64,000 nt of DNA from Octopus vulgaris (GCA_951406725.2 OX597814.1:117800001-117864000), one strand, 5' to 3'. Counted from the first letter of the stretch, positions 27,961 through 43,897 are shown. A program made the numbers and translations. Notes: generated from the letters alone by a model not told the origin.

Positions 27961-28217
27961 CATATATATATATATATATATATATATATATATATATATA
28001 TATAAGCAATAATAAATCTCTGAAGGAGATGTAAAGATTAACCGCTCGACAACGTAAAGTATACTAGCCATCTCAATATGGCTAACCACTAAGGGTGGGT
28101 GTTATTGTCGCTTTTAGCCCCAGGAGATCATCGTCTCCAGCTGGCTTTAGACACACTTTCTGTGCCCTTATGATATTCGCAAAGGCAGGTCATCCCCTTC
28201 CGTAAACTTAAGTGATA

Positions 28218-28262
28218 CGCACGGACTATAGTTTCGAGGTTCTTGTCTCTTGTCAACATACG
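28218..28262 (-). ncRNA. Minimal HHR, U3-A8 compensatory variant
   Basis: Minus strand: cgtatg-TTGACAA-gaga-caagaa-cctc-GAAAC-TATA-GTC-cgtgcg. Confidence 0.7.
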
Positions 28263-28510
28263 ATAATCAGCGGTTTTCGATGAGGAGAGCCCTGTTTGCG
28301 AATATCACTTTAATGTTTTTCTCAGTAACCACTGTCACTGATTCTGAAAAAAACTGTTTGAAAGCAATAATAAATCTCTGAAAAAGATGTAAACAGTAAC
28401 CGCTCGACAACGTAAAGTATACTAGCCATCTGGCTAACCACTAGGGGTGGGTGTTACTGTCGCTTTTAGCCCCAAATATTCGCAAACAGGTCTCTCCTCA
28501 TCGAAAACCG

Positions 28511-28553
28511 GTACGTTGACAAGAGGCAAGAACCTCGAAACTATAGTCCGTGC
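28511..28553 (+). ncRNA. Minimal HHR, U3-A8 compensatory variant
   Basis: gtacg-TTGACAA-gagg-caagaa-cctc-GAAAC-TATA-GTC-cgtgc. Confidence 0.75.
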
Positions 28554-28788
28554 GTATCACTTAGGTTTACGAGAGGGGATGACCTCCCTTTGCGATTATC
28601 ATAAGGGAAAGTGTGTCTAAAGCCAGCTGGAGACGATGATCTCCTGGGGCTAAAAGCGACAGTAACACCCACCCTTAGTGGTTAGCAATATTCAAATGGC
28701 TAGTATACTTTACGTGATTGATATATATATATATATATATATTAATATATATTTATTAATTAATTATTTTATTGTTCTAGTTTATTTT

Positions 28789-28877
28789 TAACCTGATGAG
28801 TGATTATATTTATATCGAAGTGATTTCTCTACTACTATAATCATTTCTTAAATATAGCTACGAAACACGTGTCGTTA
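28789..28877 (+). ncRNA. Minimal type I HHR in a solo PLE pseudo-LTR (28760-29130)
   Basis: taac-CTGATGA-gt...ac-GAAAC-ACGT-GTC-gtta. Confidence 0.7.
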
Positions 28878-30564
28878 TTCTACAAATTATATACGTTATA
28901 ATAATTTTTTTTTGCAATTTACTTAATCATTGACCTTTTATTTTTATTTTAATTTTAATATTTCTCTTATATGTAATTTTCTAGATGGTGTAATTTAAGT
29001 CTTCATTTTGAATTGATAAAAGGTGGGCTTTTTTCTAATTTTATATATATATATATTATATTGGGTGAAATTTGATTTAGGTTTTCTAAATTGAATTTTT
29101 TTCCTTGTAAGTTTGGATTTTATTCCCTCAAATTATAATTATATATATATATATATATATATATATATATATATATATGTGTGTGTGTGTGTGTGTGTGT
29201 GTGTGTGTGTGTGTGTGTATGTGCGTGTATGTGTGTGTAAATGTGTGCATGTAGATATGTATGAATGCGTATGCATTGTACGATTGATAGGAAATATATT
29301 CCTTTCAAAGAGAAATACATACTACACTGCGGAAGAAATTCCGTTTTTGTCTATTGAATTAAATTTAGCAGTTAGTTCGAGGTAATTCGCATGTTCTCGC
29401 AGTTTCCGATTTTGGTTAGGCTTCACTAAAAATAAATAAACGTTGTATCGAATACCCAAACCTCGACACCGTGATGACTTGTGCCGAATTCATGTGAAAT
29501 CCCTATTCCATATGGCACATTTATATTTAGTTCAAAATATTCCAGAGAATATTTTTATGCTCTCTGAGGATTGCGACACTAATTTTGAGCAGAGCCTATT
29601 TGAAAATCAGAATGCTCTGCAAACGTTTAATCACACAGTGTTGAATAATCTTGCAAGTGATCTAAATTTTCTGAAAAATTTGCGGTAATTTTAGCTACAC
29701 AATTTAGAGTGAAAAATGTGCTTAATTCAAACATATACATTACATGTTATAGAAAATGTATTAGGAGTTCAATAAAAAAGTTTTAGGATTTCAATAAAAA
29801 TCATGTTTGTTTAGTAGTATATATATATATATATATATATATATATATATATATATATATATATACACACACACAGAAGGAGATATATTTAAGAGTTTCC
29901 AAAGAATAGTTTGGTATGTTGCTGCAAAGTACCTGGTTTGTTACTGGAGAGTGGGGTTGAGTCTTACGATGCAAACGATGGCATCTGTTTTTAAAGGAGA
30001 ATAATTTTGAAGTCTTTGTTACTGCATAATGGCAGTCTATATGGTTCGTTACTGACTGGGTACTCAAAAAATATAACAGAAAATTATTAACATATAGAAA
30101 AGGTTTTAAACCTTATCACATATATGAAGGACAACTGGATCGTAAGTGTTCAATTAAAAATTCTTAATTTTCTGCTAGGACAACCAGCAGTGTACGTTAA
30201 ATAACCTTGTTTACTTTGCATATGGGACAGCGGAGCCAAGGAGAAGTATTATTTCTAACAAATCTGACCAGCAGAAACATCACTTACTATCGTAGAGGAA
30301 ACAACGTAATTAATCCACCTAGGCCTTATCGAACATTATGTAAAAGCTTTAGATACAATCGGCGAGTGTTTCAAATGGATAACTTCAAAATTTCCAAATT
30401 TAAATTATGAAAAATTCAAGGCCGGAGTTTTTGACGTTCCACGAATAAAAGCATCAACGAAAGGAATGCGAAAAAAACGATTAAATTTCAATTAAATAAA
30501 TCATTTGATCACTTGTTTTCTGTATTCAAAATTCATACAGAACTTATAGGATGACATGATATAT

Positions 30565-40890: not shown

Positions 40891-41426
40891 AACAATTTTC
40901 TTCGTTTCTACAATCACAAAAGGAATTTCAAGCCTCCTTGAGCCGTCAACAATTGAATAATTATTAAGCAAAATTCTTTAAAAGGCATCATTTCATAAGA
41001 GTACCACGACTGCTTCCCAAAGTGGAAAACGCGCTGGGACCGACGCATTGCTTCATATGGAGAATAATTTGAAGGTGTTAAATGTATAAACATGTATAAA
41101 CATGCAAAAAGTAATGTAAACCAGAATATTGCAAAATTACGTTTTCTTTTTGGTACCCTGTCGTCTATATATATATATATATATATATATATATATATAT
41201 ATATATATATATATATATATATATATATATATATATATATATATATATATATATATATATATATTTCTATATATATATACTGTCAACTTAACGTGACAGT
41301 AGGGGATTACACCACCGCTGTTTAGCCCTAGGAAGCATCGACGCTTCCTGTCGGCTTCGACACATTTCCTGTGTCCTTATATATTTACGAAGGGGAGACA
41401 AATACCCCCAACAGCTAGGCCTGCAT

Positions 41427-41471
41427 CTAGAGACACGCATGTTTCAGGGTCTTTGCCTATCATCGGTCTAG
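41427..41471 (-). ncRNA. Minimal HHR variant (U4C core)
   Basis: Minus strand: ctaga-CCGATGA-tagg-caaaga-ccct-GAAAC-ATGCGT-GTC-tctag. Confidence 0.65.
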
Positions 41472-41498
41472 AGTAGCAGAAGCCTGCTAGCTGAAGAT

Positions 41499-43167
41499 TA
41501 AATCTTTATTATAGGCACAATGGCCCGAATTAAGAGGAGACATAACAATACAGGATATGGGGTACATATAATAAAAAAAATACAAAAAGGATGGTATGGC
41601 AATGAATTATTTGTAATGAATTAAATGGAATGTCTTACGAGACCCCCAAAGCTCGAAGTTTCATTTACAATTACAATTGTGTTATTCAGGGCGTTCATCC
41701 GTCATGTACTCGAGTAACTTCTCCTGTTCTATAATACCTGGCAAACTGTCATACCGAATGTATTGCATTACGCATACAGTTGTATACACCTTTTCAGTGT
41801 CATTACTGTCTCTCCTTCTACAATCGCCGCCTTCACTTGGCCATCAAATATCTTCGGGTTCAACTTCACTCTAATTAGACTTTTCATATTTGTCGACTTC
41901 TTCTCAATTTCCTTGTCCTTCATGTACAACATTATAGCTTTAAGATTTCTTCCTTACATCTTTTCAGTTGTTCTTCCTTTCTTCTTTCCCATTCTTCCCC
42001 TACCTGCCAATTTGAAACTTCACTCACTTTCGTTTCTGTATCTTTCTCTTCGTGCGTTCGATCCTCTATCTCGTCGGTAGACTTCTTTTTAGCCTTTTCT
42101 TTTTTTTTTGTGCTTTTGGTGGTGATTCCACCCGCGTTCTCTTCGTATCCTCTTTTTCTGCTGTTCTTTCCTTTTCTTTCTCCTTCACCAACTCGTCACC
42201 ACTTTCCACATTATCTGTAGTTACGATTTCCTCTTCTGCTTGCAATTCCACATTCGCCTTTTGTAACTCCTCTGTCAAAGTCTCCAGTGATATCGTCTTC
42301 TCTTGTACTTCTCTTAGCGGACACATATCCTTCATGTGGCCTCTAATTTTGCATTTGTAGCACAGAGGGGGTCTCCCCTCCACCTCGACTCTGAGACGTG
42401 TCTCGTCGGGGAACACCAACTCCTCTGGGATGTTATACAGGTCTGGCATGGTTATATGAACCAAAGCCTGCACCGCCTAACCCCACCACTTCACTTCTTT
42501 CGACATTTCCACCTTCAGTATGTCGACCCTCTCTTTGCAGTTGAATACTATTGCCGCTACAATTCTTTCCATGTTCAGTTCCGGTGAAATTTTACTGATT
42601 CGTATTCTTACTGCTCTTTTTCCACAATAGCTAGGTAGTAACATAGGTAGTAACACCCATTTTTCAGTTTTCAATATTTTCGTGGCGTTCCTCTTCACTT
42701 CATCTTCGTTTTCAAAATGAATAACTACTGTTGCGTATTTTCTACTTCTATTGTAAAAGGTAGTTTCTCCTTCAATTTCCTGTAGAAACCTCTCGATTTC
42801 TTCCACCTCTGCCACTTCTATTCTCTTCGAAGCCACGCTCCACGTTCTGTATGTTATAATACGCTTCTCTGCTTCTTTCGCTTCGTCTTCAGGTGATGTG
42901 ACCCTCAGGCAATCACCCTCCTTCTTGAAGCTGTTGAAGTATTTCTTCAAACTCTCTTTCTCGACGACCACTTCCTCCAACTGCATTTCGCTTGCAGCCA
43001 GGCCCTTGCCTGCTGCTCCCGCATAAGTTTGGGCTTGCATACCCAACAAAAACTCCAAAAATTCACCACGCCGTAACAGCTTTCACCAACGAATTCGAAC
43101 TCACAACCGCGATACACAATAACCGTAACACAAAATAACCGACACAAAAACCGCCAGCCGCAGATCA
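41499..43167 (-). mobile_element. ORF1-only (HAL1-like) non-autonomous retroelement with 15-bp TSD
   Basis: TSD CTGCTAGCTGAAGAT at 41484-41498 and 43168-43182. In-frame ORFs 42477-43058 and 42066-42473 carry a gag-type knuckle CYKCKIRGHMKDMC. AATAAA lies at the 3' end. No RT seen. Confidence 0.75.
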
Positions 43168-43495
43168 CTGCTAGCTGAAGATATCTGTCTCGACTTGGTA
43201 AATATATATATATAATTTTCAGTTAAGTTTATTCACTGTTCACCAAAATCAGAAGTATTAAATTTCTAAATATCTCATAGAGATATGTACGGTGGTGGGG
43301 CGATAGAGTGATTGTATACTGTCAACTTAACGTGACAGTATCTCTATGAGATATTAACGTGACAGTATCTCTATGAGATATTTAGAAATTTAATATTTCT
43401 GATTCTGGTGATCAGTGAATAAATTTCACTGAAAATTAGATATATATATTTACGAAGTCGAGACAGATATATTCAGCTAGCAGGCTTCTGCTACT

Positions 43496-43540
43496 CTAGA
43501 ACGATGATGGGCAAAGACCCTGAAACATGCGTGTCTCTAG
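43496..43540 (+). ncRNA. Minimal HHR, inverted copy (C3 mutated)
   Basis: ctaga-ACGATGA-tggg-caaaga-ccct-GAAAC-ATGCGT-GTC-tctag. Confidence 0.55.
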
Positions 43541-43897
43541 TTGCGGGCCTAGCTGTTGGGGGTATTTGTCTCCCCCTTCGTAAATATATAAGGACACAGG
43601 AAATGTGTCGAAGCCGACAGGAAGCGTCGATGCTTCCTAGGGCTAAACAGCAGTGTGTAATCCCCTACTGTCACGTTACGTTGACAGTATACAACCACCC
43701 TATCGCTCCACCACCGTACATATCTCTATGAGATATTTAGAAATTTAATATTTTTGATATATATATATATATTTATATATATATATATATATATATATAA
43801 CGGGAAGCTTTATGAAAATAGACAAAAGACGAAGGCAGGTGGAAAACAAACAAACAATTGTATTAGTATGGCGCTCAGGAAATATAAATAAAACAAG

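Follow-up and report, generated by a model that had tools for sequence, protein, structure and literature searches.

What are the two short non-coding repeat insertions of this octopus locus, how do they spread, and why is one of them split by a protein-coding element? The window considered here is a 64,000-nucleotide (nt) stretch of Octopus vulgaris DNA (GCA_951406725.2 OX597814.1:117800001-117864000; positions are counted along the whole stretch), and its two insertions are built from a 359-bp unit A and a 355-bp unit B, each with a hammerhead ribozyme motif. By comparison with the O. vulgaris contigs (2.8 Gb, 227 contigs) we arrived at a joint reading in which the units are retrozymes mobilised by Penelope-like elements (PLEs), carry a likely U1/U2-type promoter for RNA polymerase II (Pol II), and serve as target for a long interspersed nuclear element (LINE) of the L1/Tx1 group that inserts at their predicted transcription start. 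It draws on four observations: a conserved fold, the insertion pattern, the site preference of the LINE and the position of a core motif. We give it a probability of roughly 0.6; that the units are PLE-mobilised retrozymes is, taken by itself, highly probable. An earlier note on the window had recognised the retrozyme units and overlooked the likely promoter and the site-specific LINE.

Both insertions consist of tandem and inverted copies set in (AT)n, as the earlier note had described. In A, 28004-28122 recurs directly at 28362-28474 (90%) and 28052-28305 in inverted form at 28476-28715 (90%); in B, the direct repeat is 41276-41301 with 43315-43340 (100%) and the inverted repeat 41180-41498 with 43469-43799 (87%). 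The (AT)n tracts lie at 27946-28004, 28721-28756, 41166-41279 and 43757-43799. The minus-strand copy of B, spanning 41276-43340, had rightly been read as one unit (41276-41498 plus 43183-43314); the gap in it is a separate 1.67-kb insertion with its own 15-bp target-site duplication (TSD). Multimers of A, B and C (a third type, see below) offer no ATG-initiated frame longer than 16-75 amino acids (aa), so that the units lack an open reading frame (ORF), and their 355-360 bp with a type I hammerhead fall within the 150-450 bp of the short-repeat retrozymes that lack long terminal repeats (non-LTR retrozymes).

A first look at the genome returned 2,549 candidates for A and 3,141 for B (40 scored for each, 88-95% identity), and a motif from the block shared by A and B had 1,701 exact matches against none for its reversed control. 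This block is homologous, as had been proposed, although it had been quoted on the strand antisense to the ribozyme. A profile over the collected loci matched in full 417 times; at 89% these matches fall into 27 clusters, which comprise types A, B, C, C2, D, E and F. As judged from sequence, A and B belong to one superfamily of ORF-less repeats of about 355-360 bp with at least seven subfamilies. Family C, with copies 98-99% identical in tandem arrays, appears to be young. Six A copies (L003, L004, L005, L011, L012, L016) share a flank containing an opposite-strand Hydra-like endonuclease (EN) fragment, so that A was amplified there as part of a larger repeat; most of these copies are on contig C17. 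Contigs from runs that we guess to be RNA cover B and parts of A and C; as they carry no information on level, strand, ends or circularity, they are not used as evidence. A circle joined by ribozyme or ligase has the same order as a genomic tandem, and junction reads are therefore non-diagnostic for circular RNA.

The genomic copies and their folds bear out the idea of two different hammerheads within one shared architecture. A has a U3-A8 core and a C-TATA-G stem III, while B has a C4 core and a stem II that opens with a U.U mismatch; both were located on both strands, and the plus-strand copy of B, with A at core position 3, is probably dead. An Rfam search of the units, which had been suggested as a check, returned neither a hammerhead nor any other relevant family at E<=1. 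Helix lengths are those of canonical metazoan type I hammerheads (helix I 6 bp, helix II 4 bp, helix III 1-2 bp, palindromic loop; PMC4209133). An exactly palindromic stem-loop III was counted in 158 of 219 distinct copies, family C contributing 78, and takes the form of at least seven different palindromes; the commonest form in B is one base short of a palindrome. In the available sections of PMC4209133, palindromic loops III mark hammerheads that cut as dimers, and a U3-A8 core is also reported. The palindromic or near-palindromic loop III would fit a dimeric ribozyme.

The long-range stem said to bracket the ribozyme is present in both units: it has 13 exact pairs in A and 15 bp with one mismatch in B (41378-41392 with 43194-43208), and it forms the base of a long rod by which helix I is prolonged. 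Monomers of A, B and C are strongly self-paired (z -4.4, -6.7 and -5.0; none of 100 shuffles was as good in any of the three) and share one layout in the sense of the ribozyme, namely a 5' hairpin, the hammerhead-capped rod, hairpin P2, the two-part hairpin P3, a further hairpin and a terminal hairpin. For covariation we aligned 24 sequences without regard to structure (both copies from the window, representatives of 20 of the 27 clusters and two A variants), omitting three representatives with large deletions and four further A/B variants. A named structure of 28 pairs was paired in 93% of cells, with two-sided change in 18 of the 28, against 25-50% and two to six pairs for slid controls. Two-sided change was seen in all six pairs of helix I and all four of helix II, compared with 2/6 in P2, 1/4 in outer P3 and 3/5 in inner P3. 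Because the shuffle control is blind to relatedness, all 13,095 column pairs were also ranked by a G-test with average product correction. The loop III pair came first and 9 of the 24 ranked named pairs fell within the top 30, most of which are phylogenetic noise; three second-domain pairs ranked 11, 16 and 18, each resting on three to four sequences, and seven others ranked below 6,000 because they are nearly invariant. The ribozyme is under structural selection. The second domain (P2 and P3) is conserved, mainly as sequence, and the proof of its pairing is modest. The view that pairing is kept while sequence changes thus holds strongly for the ribozyme and modestly for the second domain, where most pairs hardly vary. 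The part in reverse-transcriptase binding that the earlier note considered for this domain is conjectural.

Three further structural ideas were given up. In the rod, 29 of 48 RNAalifold pairs show two-sided change, but in a set of 15 sequences only two of the top 30 G-test pairs are predicted pairs, and we rejected this covariation as inseparable from phylogeny. A second ribozyme in the second domain (twister- or pistol-like by consensus features) found no support from Rfam or the alignment. Kissing of the P3 loop with the 5' strand of the rod is complementary in A, inconsistent in B and absent from the top 30 of either alignment.

The way in which the units are inserted points to their mode of spread. 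We examined 60 A/B loci, two of them those of the window; the six A loci with one shared flank do not count as independent. A further direct piece is present at 45 of the loci, and an inverted piece at 22. The inverted pieces lack a tail of about 45-60 nt and often lie in (AT)n; they end at unit positions 309-314 (A, 9/14) or 294-300 (B, 7/12). In contrast, the 5' ends are scattered over positions 39-334, and in these loci truncation shows no peak at either the cut site or the predicted start (+1). Of 20 family C arrays picked from the top multi-unit matches, 19 have two outward arms with up to eight whole units per arm, 16 of these 19 end at about 316 on one side and about 360 on the other, and 17 of the 20 have (AT)n on both sides. 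Two consecutive hammerhead-bearing units, by which a recent preprint (10.64898/2026.07.22.740005) defines 'active' loci, occur in family C and at some A loci (L020, L029) and not in the window insertions. Partial tandems, an inverted 5'-truncated copy and a tail at one end are the marks of a non-autonomous PLE; the sections of PMC8557442 on this point recognise PLE insertions by partial tandems next to which a 5'-truncated copy lies inverted, and link (TA)n targets to Hydra, Naiad and Neptune elements. The A/B insertions carry this Penelope-type signature.

The C arrays also bear on the template. In six of the 20 a variant is present in all or nearly all units, in five of them across both arms, which implies that the arms were copied from one template lineage, whereas variants in only some units, seen in five arrays, need a mixed multimer template or later conversion. 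Circular monomers, circular multimers and linear multimers may each have served as template for these arrays, and a circular RNA template, suggested by analogy, is a tentative proposal that we put slightly below even odds.

The 1.67-kb element in B encodes a gag-like ORF1 with a zinc knuckle, is flanked by the 15-bp TSD, and carries at its 5' end a second, donor-type target sequence that starts at ATC (43165). When the best 30 of 173 candidates for such ORF1-only copies were inspected, 24 proved to be flanked by a unit, and the site used was identical across types A, B and F. Starting from a LINE 3' fragment in the target site of one A locus, we traced a 5.5-kb element that has an ORF1 and a 1,134-aa ORF2 (APE, reverse transcriptase (RT) and zinc-finger (zf) domains). 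Long and short elements share 26% identity in ORF1 (E 2e-28), and the closest solved protein to the ORF2 of the long one is L1 ORF2p (E 7e-63). A zinc-knuckle ORF1 with an ORF2 of APE, RT and zf-RVT is the domain set of the Tx1 clade. The homologue matches of the LINE included no named Tx1 reference and gave it no name; the nearest named relative of a LINE from this genome is from Argonauta hians (65% identity). We assign the 5.5-kb LINE to the L1/Tx1 group, a closer placement within Tx1 being putative. ORF1-only elements are known as HAL1, to which the 1.67-kb companion may be likened.

Of the best 30 LINE 3' ends, a set biased by a query taken from an A copy, 20 run into a unit, three into U2 genes (identified with Rfam), five into another element at a target-like sequence and two elsewhere. 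For the ORF1-only copies (24/30) and the LINE (20/30) alike, this exceeds the 20% of flanks taken as evidence of a target in PMC4494074. The TSDs are 17-19 bp where both copies agree, or 15-19 bp overall. In U2 genes the TSD consists of three upstream bases and U2 nucleotides 1-14, i.e. insertion is at +1, and the 3' flank is three upstream bases and U2 nucleotide 1 rather than U2 from nucleotide 39 as for Keno. One U2 cluster (L258-L260, L164, L167-L169) holds full-length and tandem LINE copies at +1, with the U2 coding sequence intact downstream but severed from its promoter. At L275, B units alternate with ORF1-only or LINE-derived inserts in an array. Copies outside units and U2 (L099, L106, L115, L118, L170, L173), where Rfam at gathering score found nothing, could mark other small nuclear RNA (snRNA)-type starts or off-target sites.

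What units and U2 genes have in common upstream of this site is a heptamer. ATCAGTG stands at -57 to -59 in all 15 U1 genes fetched, in both U2 genes (one cluster), in 11 of 12 U5 genes and in four of the six top U4 loci of 12 fetched; it is absent from four U6 loci chosen from 20 as likely true genes. The upstream regions of these U6 genes (among L296-L348) carry instead a motif resembling an octamer near -80, together with TATA near -30. In the units, ATCAGTG lies 61 nt (A) and 58 nt (B) before the ATC of the LINE target, and in C, C2 and D the variant ATCAG(C/T)A occupies about the same place; the heptamer occurs nine times in the window. The core alone thus occupies the position of a proximal sequence element (PSE; about -57 to -61), while its flanks score weakly. 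Furthermore, the second target-like sequence at the 5' junction of the inserts starts exactly at ATC in three lineages (window, L094, L258/L259), as expected if the LINE RNA starts at ATC; L258/L259 is a LINE inserted in U2 whose 5' remnant resembles an A subfamily site. A functional snRNA-type promoter in the units is, on these grounds, rather probable. A U6-type promoter for RNA polymerase III was dropped, as U6 genes lack the core; several units do have a TATA-like run near -30.

The same PLE-mobilised retrozymes could also do without such a promoter, if the ATCAGTG match reflected chance or conservation of an RNA hairpin, transcription came by read-through, and the LINE read a short TT(T/C)ATC...GG-like sequence common to U2 and units. 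Consistent with this are the weak matrix scores beyond the 7-nt core, the direct similarity of the A and U2 target sequences and the occurrence of a few insertions at unrelated sites (6/30 ORF1-only copies lack a unit). However, the offset of -58 to -61 agrees with four snRNA classes and is kept in B, whose target sequence is unlike those of A and U2; the donor-type 5' remnants begin at ATC in three lineages; and newt satellite 2, a hammerhead repeat too, has an snRNA-type promoter according to a work cited in the available part of PMC2220036. We consider this promoter-free account unlikely, though worth keeping in mind.

The units might alternatively be solo pseudo-long terminal repeats (pLTRs) or 3' fragments of an autonomous PLE outside our sample, and the earlier note had itself named pLTRs of ORF-bearing PLEs as its refuting case. 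The insertion pattern is indeed that of PLEs, and in Xenopus, as the accessible text of the preprint has it, 24 of 57 retrozyme families matched known transposable elements, mainly PLE termini. No such arrangement was found in 140 loci. At the 60 unit loci no RT or EN ORF leads in sense into the unit (proteins of the window PLEs matched at 10 of the 60). None of 80 PLE loci (30 from GIY-YIG, 30 from Hydra EN and 20 extended 3' ends; a sample of the top matches of two queries) has a unit as its 3' end. Only two of the 80 hold a unit, both apart from the PLE ends: one is a unit array in (TA)n behind a Hydra end, the other lies about 1.3 kb from the EN on the other strand. Moreover, up to eight whole units per arm follow each other with no ORF between, and their hammerhead is the canonical short-helix type, whereas the Hydra 3' untranslated regions of this genome carry a long-stem-II motif. 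We regard the fragment explanation as improbable, and the description of the units as a structured ORF-less retroelement superfamily and candidate retrozymes is supported, the class itself being already known. Candidate partners are abundant: Neptune- and Hydra-type PLEs with long frames are plentiful, with 16 of the 150 GIY-YIG matches listed lying in 781-aa frames and 17,675 Hydra EN candidates in frames of up to 1,091 aa. A and Hydra elements both end in TTGCTT before (TA)n, and the last 100 nt or so of A align weakly with long Hydra 3' ends (1, 3 and 9 of 300 shuffles were as good, among 28 comparisons). With this weak pairwise signal for A and a negative profile test, homology of the units to Hydra 3' ends is at most tentative.

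Unit and LINE could also be one composite element that moves together with units as terminal repeats. Full-length LINEs do lie between unit sequences in 11 of 20 stretches, both arms of one palindromic insertion are occupied by a LINE (the pair being 99.6% identical), and insert and flank distances correlate (rho 0.30 and 0.43; 53 and 15 of 2,000 permutations). Yet the TSDs lie at a site internal to the unit, and the same LINE sits in U2 genes without any unit. LINE ends 99.3% identical are found in units 25% diverged, four two-armed B insertions (window, L096, L101, L112) have a single occupied arm, and in the doubly occupied case the LINEs differ by 0.4% and the units by 2-10%. The last three findings mark the LINE as a later, independent invader. 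The composite element as a general rule is largely refuted and, as an overall explanation, very unlikely; occasional co-mobilisation may occur, and the modest distance correlation leaves room for this or for subfamily preference. Finally, spread of the units as DNA, by MITE-like (miniature inverted-repeat transposable element) foldback or satellite amplification with the hammerhead as a relic, is hardly credible: many insertions resemble inverted repeats and some variant sharing within arrays suggests later conversion or unequal exchange, but 3' ends are fixed while 5' truncation is random (starts over positions 39-334), the two arm ends are unequal, and the ribozyme is kept through compensatory change across subfamilies.

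The preferred reading, of PLE-mobilised retrozymes with an snRNA-type promoter and a LINE at its start, suggests the following cycle. Pol II transcription would start about 58-61 nt past the PSE-like core and run into the next unit, where two hammerheads are predicted to pair through their palindromic loops III, restricting cleavage to multi-unit RNA. Such dimer-gated cleavage would free a permuted monomer carrying the entire promoter, and part of the monomers may be ligated into circles, as in the retrozymes of PMC7229834. A Hydra or Neptune protein with RT and GIY-YIG domains would then nick (AT)n and prime complementary DNA at two fixed internal sites about 45-60 nt apart, one per strand; this twin priming would yield two outward arms of up to eight units with random 5' truncation. 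The 5.5-kb LINE and its 1.67-kb ORF1-only relative, whose insertions at the predicted +1 of units and at U2 +1 are observed, would enter later and exploit the promoters of both. A bolder version is a doubtful extension: a three-tier chain of parasites in which the PLE copies circles with a captured U1/U2-type promoter rebuilt by dimer-gated self-cleavage, the LINE finds start sites by position via SNAPc or open promoters and moves between U2 and units, and the domain of P2, P3 and the 3' hairpin acts as a telomerase-RNA-like handle that fixes both internal priming sites of the PLE RT.

Several points weigh against this reading. Cleavage is a prediction, the start site is inferred and the circles are an analogy with PMC7229834. 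Scored with a 20-column PSE matrix, the site comes first in three of ten units, second in two and outside the top two in five. Since the units are homologous, the positional match is one evolutionary observation, noticed post hoc; +1 was picked from the LINE site and holds to about +/-2 nt; and ATCAGTG is also part of an RNA hairpin, which could account for its conservation. Both the C4 and the U3-A8 core deviate from the consensus, and in the preprint, as far as its text is available, only one of nine predicted Xenopus dimers cleaved in vitro. With one hammerhead per arm, the window copies are probably spent. (AT)3 lies within 25 nt of an end in only 31 of the 60 A/B loci, and the five C arrays with variants in some units mean that a single monomer circle is not the sole fitting template. 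The Hydra and Neptune PLEs are no more than candidate partners: C, C2 and B show no alignment with Hydra 3' ends of the kind seen for A, and a profile of these ends matched none of ten units.

The features of both insertions are listed in Table 1.

Table 1. Features of insertions A and B, in positions of the 64,000-nt window.
Feature	Position	Strand	Remarks
A, full-length unit (359 bp)	28004-28362	-	3' end adjoins (AT)n 27946-28004
A, partial tandem	28362-28474	-	upstream; 5'-truncated, unit positions 241-359
A, inverted arm	28476-28715	+	5'-truncated; stops at unit position 311 (48-nt tail gone), then (AT)n; second hammerhead 28511-28553
A, hammerhead	28218-28262	-	type I, U3-A8 core, palindromic loop III; predicted cut after 28224
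A, ATCAGTG	28336-28342	-	same core as upstream of the octopus U1/U2/U4/U5 genes; likely PSE
A, LINE target site	28266-28284	-	empty in window copy; predicted +1 = 28281
A, rod extending helix I	28171-28307	-	base: 28295-28307 paired with 28171-28183
A, second domain	28116-28167	-	hairpin P2 28150-28167; two-part hairpin P3 28116-28146
B arm, 3' part	41276-41498	-	C4-core hammerhead (core to cut site 41466-41432); P3 41324-41356; P2 41359-41376; (AT)n end, tail absent
1.67-kb ORF1-only element in B target site	41499-43167	-	ORF1 43082-42066 (gag-like, zinc knuckle, one stop)
TSD of the 1.67-kb insert	41484-41498 = 43168-43182		15 bp
B arm, 5' part and upstream partial tandem	43168-43340	-	
B, opposite arm	43366-43758	+	partial tandem and full 355-bp unit 43404-43758; (AT)n next
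B, details of full unit	43404-43758	+	PSE-like core 43411-43417; empty target, predicted +1 43469; P2 43592-43609; P3 43612-43644
B, hammerhead of full unit	43501-43535	+	core position 3 mutated

The window holds further elements of related kinds. Two Hydra-clade PLEs form an inverted pair (1381-6290, plus strand, and 6306-14533); the first has a hammerhead at 6175-6262 with a stem II of about 57 nt and a palindromic stem III. This long-stem motif occurs in 13 of 18 Hydra 3' regions, and Hydra copies have two alternative endpoints, some 105 nt from each other. Assignment of the PLEs at 1381-4998 and 8681-12047 to Naiads was rejected, as RWK-like and CxCX5C motifs indicate Hydra by the definitions in the consulted part of PMC8557442. 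A Neptune-type PLE (RT, GIY-YIG; 43781-48383, minus strand) is inserted in the (AT)n directly after unit B, and its terminal repeat has solo copies at 23283-23499 and 54288-54480. Unit A is nested in another ORF-less inverted-repeat element (27357-27945 and 28757-29078; relative at 48484-49206), which has a hammerhead-like motif at 28789-28877 and no match to the A-F superfamily. At 25876-27335 an ORF-less tandem-plus-inverted element of the PLE-type pattern follows (TA)n, with a unit of about 460 bp ending in a long palindrome; a hammerhead scan of this element found none. A 393-aa single-frame galactosyltransferase (24061-25242, minus strand; PF01762, E 2e-49) is probably a host gene, and a broken LINE with RT and zf-RVT lies at 35457-39296 (minus strand).

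The units belong to a known class, and the new part is the likely promoter together with a LINE that shares its target between U2 and units. In the sections of Cervera and de la Pena (2020; PMC7229834) available here, metazoan non-LTR retrozymes are ORF-less type I hammerhead repeats of 150-450 bp, in tandem or as monomers, strongly self-paired, with circular RNA and proposed PLE mobilisation. Those of mussels measure about 350-390 bp, similar to the octopus units, and two axolotl families likewise combine U.U at the base of stem II with a palindromic loop III. These sections contain neither 'inverted' nor 'microsatellite' and mention no promoter, whereas the octopus units have inverted arms, (AT)n targets and a likely promoter; on the other hand, no pLTR homology was found for the units, which are known here from sequence alone. 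The preprint of Li et al. (2026; 10.64898/2026.07.22.740005), in the portion at hand, treats animal retrozymes as non-autonomous PLE derivatives, did not sample molluscs and states that their mode of mobilisation is open. The literature searched yielded no cephalopod retrozyme family and, among reports of octopus hammerheads, Tx1 elements in retrozymes or snRNA-promoter targeting, nothing of this system; the repeats may already be catalogued, e.g. among the cephalopod PLE families in the supplement of PMC8557442.

Hydra and Neptune PLEs and Chlamydomonas MRC1, as described in part of Craig et al. (2021; PMC8557442), resemble the units in partial tandems, an inverted 5'-truncated copy, a tail at one end and (TA)n targeting. 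In contrast to these, the units are ORF-less, have up to eight complete units per arm and tails of 44-60 nt instead of 30-40, and show no clear 3' similarity to a partner family. The same passages leave open the origin of tandem-plus-inverted PLE insertions and the role of PLE hammerheads; family C (98-99% identical, 360 nt, two fixed priming ends) could serve directly as template for assaying PLE activity in vitro. In newts, satellite 2 (Coats et al. 1994, as cited in the accessible part of PMC2220036) likewise unites a dimer-type hammerhead with an snRNA-type Pol II promoter inside the repeat. The octopus units differ in being dispersed insertions that have inverted arms, and their promoter is deduced solely from the 7-nt core and how far it lies from the predicted start. 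If true, an internal snRNA promoter extends the newt case to molluscs and would explain both the high expression of retrozymes and the retention of a dimer-only ribozyme. The ATCAGTG at about -58 of the octopus U1, U2, U4 and U5 genes (L296-L348) may also be useful for cephalopod expression vectors.

Among target-specific Tx1-clade LINEs, the excerpted PMC4494074 and PMC4640811 list Tx1L in Tx1D, Tx1-Mar in Mariner-N4 and Keno in U2. The octopus LINE shares with them the APE-RT organisation, the zinc-knuckle ORF1 and a single preferred site in a non-autonomous transposon or U2. Keno and Utopia leave U2 from nucleotide 39 (same part of PMC4640811), whereas insertion here is at U2 +1; the transposon targeted is a ribozyme retroelement, and one lineage uses unit and U2 at equal distance from a PSE-like core. 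A LINE at +1 of both U2 and a ribozyme element offers a direct test of sequence- versus promoter-guided targeting.

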